Below, piece by piece: positions 16,573 through 17,291 of a stretch of 64,000 nt of DNA. Below the pieces are notes generated by a model. It worked only from the letters and a program-made list of their open reading frames with translations, made no database searches and was not told the origin of the DNA. Origin of the DNA: Escherichia coli (lineage in GTDB: Bacteria; Pseudomonadota; Gammaproteobacteria; Enterobacterales; Enterobacteriaceae); the NCBI RefSeq assembly GCF_030384885.1, contig NZ_CP128613.1; one strand, 5' to 3'. The position numbers were made by a program, and so were the translations under genes. Position 1 is the first letter of the stretch. Every line of letters starts with the position of its first letter.

Positions 16573-16607
16573 TCAGACCAGTGGCGAGAGTATAGGTCGG
16601 ACCAGAT
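16573..16607. promoter_or_regulatory. FadR operator(s) in fadL promoter region
   Basis: AGTATAGGTCGGACCAGAT (reverse complement ATCTGGTCCGACCTATACT) matches FadR consensus CTGGTCNGACCTG; adjacent half-site TCAGACCAGTGG. Confidence 0.55.
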
Positions 16608-16852
16608 AGAATGTTGCAAGTATGTTTCTATATTTTTTCAAATATGATCTAAGAAACGCGATCCAGCTGGCAAAATTTGGAGGTGGCGCACTCATGGATT
16701 CGGGTGAATTTTGTTTTAGATCATTTTTAAGTGTGATTTCGGTCACTTATCCGATTTTGCAGAATTAACAACTGGAGCAGTACTTTCCGGAAGCGTAAAA
16801 TATCCCCAACGTTTATCTGGCACCTTAGGTGCACATACAGAGGAAATCAACG

Positions 16853-17137
16853 ATGAGTAAATGTAGTGCTGATGAAACCCCGGTTTGCTGCTGTATGGAT
16901 GTTGGCACCATTATGGACAACTCCGACTGCACCGCGTCTTACAGCCGCGTGTTTGCAAACCGCGCAGAAGCAGAACAAACGCTGGCGGCGCTGACTGAAA
17001 AAGCCCGTAGCGTTGAATCCGAACCTTGCAAAATCACCCCGACTTTCACTGAAGAGTCTGACGGTGTGCGCCTGGATATCGATTTCACTTTTGCCTGCGA
17101 AGCTGAAATGTTGATCTTCCAGCTGGGTCTGCGTTAA
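16853..17137 (+). CDS. yfcZ: UPF0381-family small protein YfcZ
   Basis: 94 aa from MSKCSADETPVCCCMDVG; ORF-track start 16829 is probably an extension. Confidence 0.85.
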   Translation: MSKCSADETPVCCCMDVGTIMDNSDCTASYSRVFANRAEAEQTLAALTEKARSVESEPCKITPTFTEESDGVRLDIDFTFACEAEMLIFQLGLR

Positions 17138-17153
17138 TTCCTCTCGGGTATAT

Positions 17154-17191
17154 ACGCCCCTGTCAGTTCCTGGCGGGGGCGTTTTTATTTT
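17154..17191 (+). terminator. Probable rho-independent terminator after yfcZ
   Basis: CGCCCC..GGGGGCG stem followed by GTTTTTATTTT. Confidence 0.45.
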
Positions 17192-17274
17192 CTCTTCCTC
17201 TTTTCTCTCTGTGTCATAGCTCCCACTTTCCCTTTTCTCCACTTGGCTAAATGTAAAAAAATGGTTAAGACTAT

Positions 17275-17291
17275 GATCAGGTCAGACCACT
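17275..17291. promoter_or_regulatory. FadR operator upstream of fadIJ
   Basis: ATCAGGTCAGACCACTT resembles FadR consensus, about 30 bp upstream of fadI start. Confidence 0.5.

Follow-up and report, generated by a model that had tools for sequence, protein, structure and literature searches.

Predicted FadR operators at the fadL-yfcZ-fadIJ locus of Escherichia coli

Three 17-bp elements, two in tandem at the promoter of fadL and a third upstream of fadI, are almost certainly the canonical FadR operators of the fadL-yfcZ-fadIJ locus of E. coli. The case for them is built on their position in the fad promoters, their identity to K-12 sequences bound by FadR, and their conservation across genera. 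FadR operators at fadL and fadI are already well described, and it has been textbook knowledge of E. coli physiology for decades that this fatty-acid sensor turns off the uptake gene fadL and the degradation genes fadIJ; the main value of the present analysis is one of correct annotation and little beyond. What is gained are exact operator coordinates, the recognition of a presumed half-site as a complete and conserved operator, the assignment to fadIJ of a promoter of its own, a clean phylogenetic footprint, and a minor variant of the first fadL site.

The DNA analysed (the window) is a 64-kb stretch of the E. coli chromosome that extends from evgS to ackA and is colinear throughout with strain 162.2. 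A 1-kb query around the operators found its counterpart in 5,425 of the 5,426 complete genomes of E. coli, where the annotated genes of the matched segment are fadL, yfcZ, and fadI, and the fadL-yfcZ-fadI region is 98% identical to that of K-12 MG1655. The gene fadL (15141-16481) is encoded on the minus strand and yfcZ (16853-17137), fadI (17319-18629), and fadJ (18629-20773) on the plus strand; colinear E. coli genomes have annotations for all four. By gap-free alignment, the K-12 equivalents of the operators are found at about 2461180-2461196 (fadL site 1), 2461204-2461220 (fadL site 2), and 2460496-2460512 (fadI). An earlier sequence-only reading of this DNA had assigned operator-like sequences near fadL and fadIJ to FadR, in line with the known repression of these genes, and this proposal is borne out by both the literature and the identity to K-12 probes. 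The two strings that it quoted are present, but the coordinates attached to each were off by one base: ATCTGGTCCGACCTATACT corresponds to the minus strand of 16589-16607 and not of 16588-16607, with the 17-bp operator occupying 16591-16607, and ATCAGGTCAGACCACTT is found at 17276-17292 instead of 17275-17291.

Operators and promoter of fadL

Both fadL operators are read on the minus strand. Site 1, ATCTGGTCCGACCTATA (16591..16607, read 16607→16591), was recognized by its match to the consensus, by comparison with the K-12 probe, and by its conservation, and site 2, CACTGGTCTGATTTCTA (16567..16583, read 16583→16567), by its identity to the K-12 probe and its conservation. The sequence between them, CTCTCGC (16584..16590), forms a spacer that is 7 bp long with sites taken as 17-mers, as opposed to the 8 bp given previously (PMC3460868). 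The mapped fadL sites coincide with oligonucleotides of K-12 shown to bind FadR and printed in an earlier study (PMC4259882): 33 of 35 positions are identical between probe fadL-FadR1 and the window at 16583-16617, the two differences both falling outside of the core CTGGTCNGACC, and probe fadL-FadR2 is matched at 35 of 35 positions (16556-16590). In EMSA, FadR bound sites 1 and 2 with equal affinity and both were freed by oleoyl-CoA (Feng and Cronan, 2012, PMC3460868), results that agree with earlier DNase I footprints of the fadL sites; site 2 is reported as footprinted, and the two sites were found to be conserved in Citrobacter, Klebsiella, and Enterobacter (PMC3460868). Compared to the K-12 operators OL1 and OL2 (DiRusso et al., 1993; Feng and Cronan, 2012, PMC3460868), those of the window are alike in gene, orientation, and distance from the CRP box; site 2, the spacer, and the core of site 1, CTGGTCCGACCTATA, are identical, and only site 1 differs, with T at position 2 and a flanking T where K-12 has G and C, respectively. 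T at position 2 is also found in the fadB operator, in its left arm.

Site 2 had previously been viewed as a half-site adjacent to site 1, within a feature begun at 16573, a position that cuts through the operator; it is instead a full second operator (16567-16583). Nor do the sites flank divergent fadL and yfcZ-fadIJ promoters, as had been supposed: both fadL operators are located on the fadL promoter, at least 246 bp from the ATG of yfcZ, whereas the fadI operator lies within the separate yfcZ-fadI spacer.

A CRP box, TGTGATTTCGGTCACT, was found at 16732-16747 on the plus strand, a position that fits the published distance of a functional CRP site, 157 bp upstream from where fadL transcription starts, while a predicted site 57 bp downstream of the start was non-functional (PMC3460868). 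Taking 16582 (minus strand) as the start places the centre of the CRP box 157.5 bp upstream and a CRP-like palindrome approximately 57 bp downstream, and because both distances match the published values, we infer that transcription of fadL begins at 16582. With the start thus fixed by the CRP box, the operators would cover the −10 and +1 positions: site 1 would extend from about −25 to −9, its right end overlapping a −10-like hexamer, TATACT (16594→16589), which is formed by the end of site 1 together with the spacer, and site 2 from about −1 to +16, over the transcription start. Such placement of operators over the −10/+1 region is the geometry of a repressor, and a review of the regulon likewise has the FadR sites of fadL overlapping its start site (PMC9329746). 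The two intervals also agree with what we take to be the original footprint coordinates of the fadL sites. A generic sigma-70 scan picked up neither the fadL nor the fadI promoter; the spacing between the −35 (TTGCAA) and −10 (TATACT) hexamers of the former would be 19 bp, compared to a scan range of 16-18 bp, and the latter lacks a good −35.

The CRP-like palindrome in the 5′ UTR of fadL, TGTTACGTACTGTAACA (about 16517-16533, near 16525), corresponds to the one described in the literature as non-functional. Several stretches of this UTR differ little or not at all between genera, examples being AGGGT and CGAAGTG near 16550 (plus strand). Within approximately codons 16-18 of fadL, the mRNA sequence GCAGUGGC (16428-16435) appears to be complementary to the 5′-terminal bases of RybB, an sRNA. 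Repression of fadL by RybB has been reviewed (PMC9329746). A search of positions 15000-19000 against Rfam returned no known RNA family at E ≤ 1.

Operator of fadI and terminator of yfcZ

The fadIJ operator, ATCAGGTCAGACCACTT, spans 17276..17292 on the plus strand and is the best match to the FadR consensus in the window, the better of its two readings being that of the minus strand, AAGTGGTCTGACCTGAT. Located 27-43 bp upstream of the fadI ATG, it overlaps a −10-like hexamer, TATGAT (17272-17277; 42-47 bp upstream of the ATG). It is identical to its counterpart at K-12 fadIJ (yfcYX; Campbell, Morgan-Kiss, and Cronan, 2003; reviewed in PMC9329746), as is the yfcZ-fadI spacer from 17210 onward, and no difference from the K-12 genome sequence was detected at the site. 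Among the E. coli genomes matched by the 81-bp segment around the operator, 4229 of 5297 did so with at least 99% identity. The review places the FadR site of K-12 fadIJ over −10/+1, as it would lie here, and overlapping a start site mapped genome-wide (PMC9329746); in the window, transcription of fadI would be expected to start near 17284. Literature searches with the operator string CAGGTCAGACCAC found no paper, those combining GGTCAGACC with FadR returned only unrelated uses and a PdhR paper, and a search on FadR ChIP-exo at fadI yielded nothing useful.

Upstream of this operator, an intrinsic terminator follows yfcZ (17154..17182, plus strand), comprising a 13-bp stem with nine G-C pairs and a subsequent TTTTTATTTT. 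Its minimum free energy is −25.8 kcal/mol, and both hairpin and T-run recur in 76 of the 78 orthologous loci. The terminator stands between yfcZ and the fadIJ promoter, and between it and fadI are found both a conserved block that is promoter-like and the FadR operator. A yfcZ-fadIJ operon served by the divergent promoter, as had been assumed in the sequence-only reading, was rejected on these grounds, with terminator and promoter-like block separating yfcZ from fadI. In the review, likewise, fadI and fadJ make up an operon of two genes that has a separate start site (PMC9329746). The fadIJ pair would hence have its own promoter, and no evidence was found for a yfcZ-fadIJ transcript.

Consensus matches, conservation, and alternative readings

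Every 17-mer of the window was scored on both strands by its number of mismatches to the published 17-bp FadR consensus, aaCTGGTCnGACC(T/A)Gtt (PMC9329746). The fadI site, with two mismatches, and fadL site 1, with three, are the two best, and no other position on either strand of the 64 kb has three or fewer. An iid model predicts 0.06 sites with up to two mismatches and 0.85 with up to three per window, and of 100 windows simulated with a first-order Markov model, 40 contained at least one site with three or fewer. Mismatch counts taken alone are thus only moderately persuasive, marking the fadI site as unusual and site 1 as only marginal; by these statistics neither site 1 nor site 2 reaches significance. 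Site 2, with five mismatches and a match limited to its left half, as in K-12, is not callable by sequence alone because the window contains 52 17-mers with this many mismatches. The weight-matrix scan that had been suggested for this locus proved favourable, both quoted strings ranking near the top of 63,984 positions. With matrices trained only on independent sites (the fadBA, fadD1, fadD2, fabA, and fabB probes of PMC4259882), four to five training sites placed the fadI site second and site 1 fourth to sixth, while the three fad sites alone placed site 1 second and the fadI site fifth.

The palindromic core GGTCNGACC occurs five times in the window compared to an expectation of 0.54. Three additional cores, GGTCAGACC at 62809, 63297, and 63438, were rejected as FadR sites; each is an in-frame GGT-CTG-ACC (Gly-Leu-Thr) on the coding strand of pta or ackA, and such codons inflate naive counts of FadR-like cores. 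These are preferred codons of highly expressed genes. A sequence resembling site 2, AACTGGTCTGATTTTAA at 26466, has five mismatches, is part of the coding sequence of a fimbrial subunit, and was taken to be a chance occurrence.

Conservation was followed through a scan for YfcZ, with one genome taken per species, which provided 80 loci, spread over about 25 genera of Enterobacteriaceae. The tandem fadL sites were found in 75 of the 80, invariably with the 7-bp spacer (75/75); three of the others have one substitution in site 2, and in the remaining two, both from insect-gut taxa, site 1 is degenerate. The fadI site is present in 77 of the 78 loci that extend far enough, and 61 of the 77 are identical. 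The operators vary almost exclusively at positions 1-2 and 9, which are free in the consensus, with a few changes at 8, 10, and 17, and at the last positions of site 2; site 1 varies at positions 1, 2, 9, and once at 8, and the fadI site mainly at positions 1-3, 9, and 17, and once at 10. With mean column entropies of 0.15 bits (fadL site 2, the lowest), 0.22 bits (site 1), and 0.29 bits (fadI site), the three operators are the least variable of the intergenic segments, compared to 0.4-1.2 bits for the surrounding intergenic DNA, 0.5-1.0 bits for the flanks of site 1, and 0.42 bits for the coding sequence of yfcZ. In a comparative-genomics study, fadL, fadI, and fadJ were the most widely conserved of the predicted FadR regulon members (50, 47, and 46 genomes, respectively, in five taxonomic groups).

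The sole locus without the fadI site is that of Tenebrionibacter intestinalis, in which no recognizable yfcZ-fadI spacer, fadI start, or FadR-like site was found downstream of yfcZ. It is this insect-gut species, together with Intestinirhabdus alba, that has the degenerate fadL site 1, and the fad regulon may be undergoing erosion in the two taxa.

It could be argued that the sites are fortuitous resemblances to a degenerate consensus, devoid of any regulatory role. The numbers given above for matches with three mismatches lend this some substance, as do the approximately 50 matches with five mismatches expected by chance per 64 kb and the finding that three further cores are mere codons. However, the two top matches are both situated within 110 bp upstream of fad genes; the fadL sites are the same as K-12 sequences bound by FadR in vitro, site 2 in full and site 1 in its core; and the operators, compared over about 25 genera, are conserved better than any other intergenic segment and vary in the pattern of a palindromic operator. 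The likelihood of coincidence is consequently regarded as negligible.

A somewhat more serious, yet still very improbable, explanation is that the conservation reflects core promoter elements (the −10, the start, and the initially transcribed sequence) or binding by ArcA, OmpR, or PdhR, and not by FadR. The operators do overlap the −10-like hexamers TATACT and TATGAT as well as start sites, and ArcA, OmpR, and CRP also act at fadL (PMC9329746, PMC3460868). Moreover, PdhR, a member of the FadR subfamily, produced a gSELEX peak in the yfcZ/fadI spacer, for which a box within the first codons of fadI was proposed (PMC7660256); this box (17323-17339) agrees with the consensus for PdhR in 7 of 14 positions, compared to 10 of 14 for the FadR operator (17276-17292) 47 bp upstream of it. 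Nevertheless, the invariant columns are the CTGGTC/GACC bases of FadR recognition and not the promoter hexamers, with the central and the outer two bases varying freely, and direct binding of FadR to the K-12 counterparts has been demonstrated (PMC3460868, PMC4259882). Any sharing of a site with PdhR would add to control by FadR and not replace it. The reading of the three sites as FadR operators is therefore retained. From its sequence, the fadI operator might be, in addition, the element recovered by PdhR in gSELEX, and, as a separate matter, the site 1 allele of this strain might make the repression of fadL a little tighter or looser; both suggestions are rather doubtful. If the former were true, two regulators of the FadR subfamily, the acyl-CoA sensor and the pyruvate sensor PdhR, would compete for the single site at fadI.

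Regulation, the site 1 allele, and related sites

FadR is a dimeric repressor of the GntR family with winged-helix domains. Its gene is absent from the gene lists of the 64-kb window and, in K-12, presumably lies some 1.2 Mb away; fadR is assumed to be present in this genome given that the organism is E. coli. The binding of FadR, its release by acyl-CoA, and the resulting control are known from the literature (PMC9329746, PMC3460868). In the absence of fatty acids, FadR dimers would occupy the two tandem 17-bp operators of fadL and the single operator over the −10/+1 of fadIJ, where they would block RNA polymerase sterically at −10/+1. Long-chain fatty acids imported through FadL would be converted to acyl-CoA by FadD, and acyl-CoA of C14 or longer would then bind the C-terminal domain of FadR, causing it to leave the DNA and both promoters to be derepressed. 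Activation by CRP and repression by ArcA would provide further control.

The variant form of site 1 begins ATCTGG where K-12 has AGCTGG, a G→T change at position 2, and is accompanied by a C→T change of the adjacent 5′ base (window 16591-16608). Among 5,424 complete genomes of E. coli, not one has the two changes together, and the best match there to the 65-bp segment has one mismatch; each change is found singly, the first in strain 162.2 and the second in the O157:H7 strain TR01. Position 2 is free in the consensus, and T is its commonest state in other genera. An effect of the allele on FadR binding, as far as can be predicted from sequence, is possible but unlikely. FadR operators serve in synthetic fatty-acid biosensors, and hence natural variants of them are of some practical interest.

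The operator of fadBA, ATCTGGTACGACCAGAT, is presumably that used in the crystal structures of FadR-DNA complexes. In the K-12 fadBA EMSA probe, it forms a near-perfect palindrome (PMC4259882), and it has in common with the sites of the window the 17-bp architecture and the core TGGT-N3-ACC. The latter are less symmetric: the right end of site 1 is degenerate (TATA), site 2 matches in its left half only, and the arms of the fadI site are CAGG and CCAC.

A FadR site of fabB, GGCTGATCGGACTTGTT, is also located within the window, at 35931-35947 on the plus strand and 136 bp upstream of the fabB ATG (36083). Like the fad sites it is 17 bp long and bound by FadR, but its core is CTGATC as opposed to CTGGTC. 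In 56 of 57 positions the region agrees with the fabB probe of K-12, in which a FabR palindrome lies adjacent to the site. With this site, the window holds a third FadR-controlled promoter, one that is activated by FadR; the site is presumably positioned upstream of the promoter at about −40, a location from which FadR activates.

Apart from the FadR sites, two other features of the window were noted. A sucrose-utilization (csc) cluster encoding a LacI-type regulator, cscA, a kinase, and an MFS transporter occupies 5465-11327, between a truncated dsdX and a tRNA-Arg gene; it has the character of an accessory island and is, we assume, absent from the corresponding position in K-12. Between mlaA and fadL, an ORF of 399 amino acids (13566-14765, minus strand), annotated solely as a hypothetical protein, is situated at the position held by yfdF in K-12.
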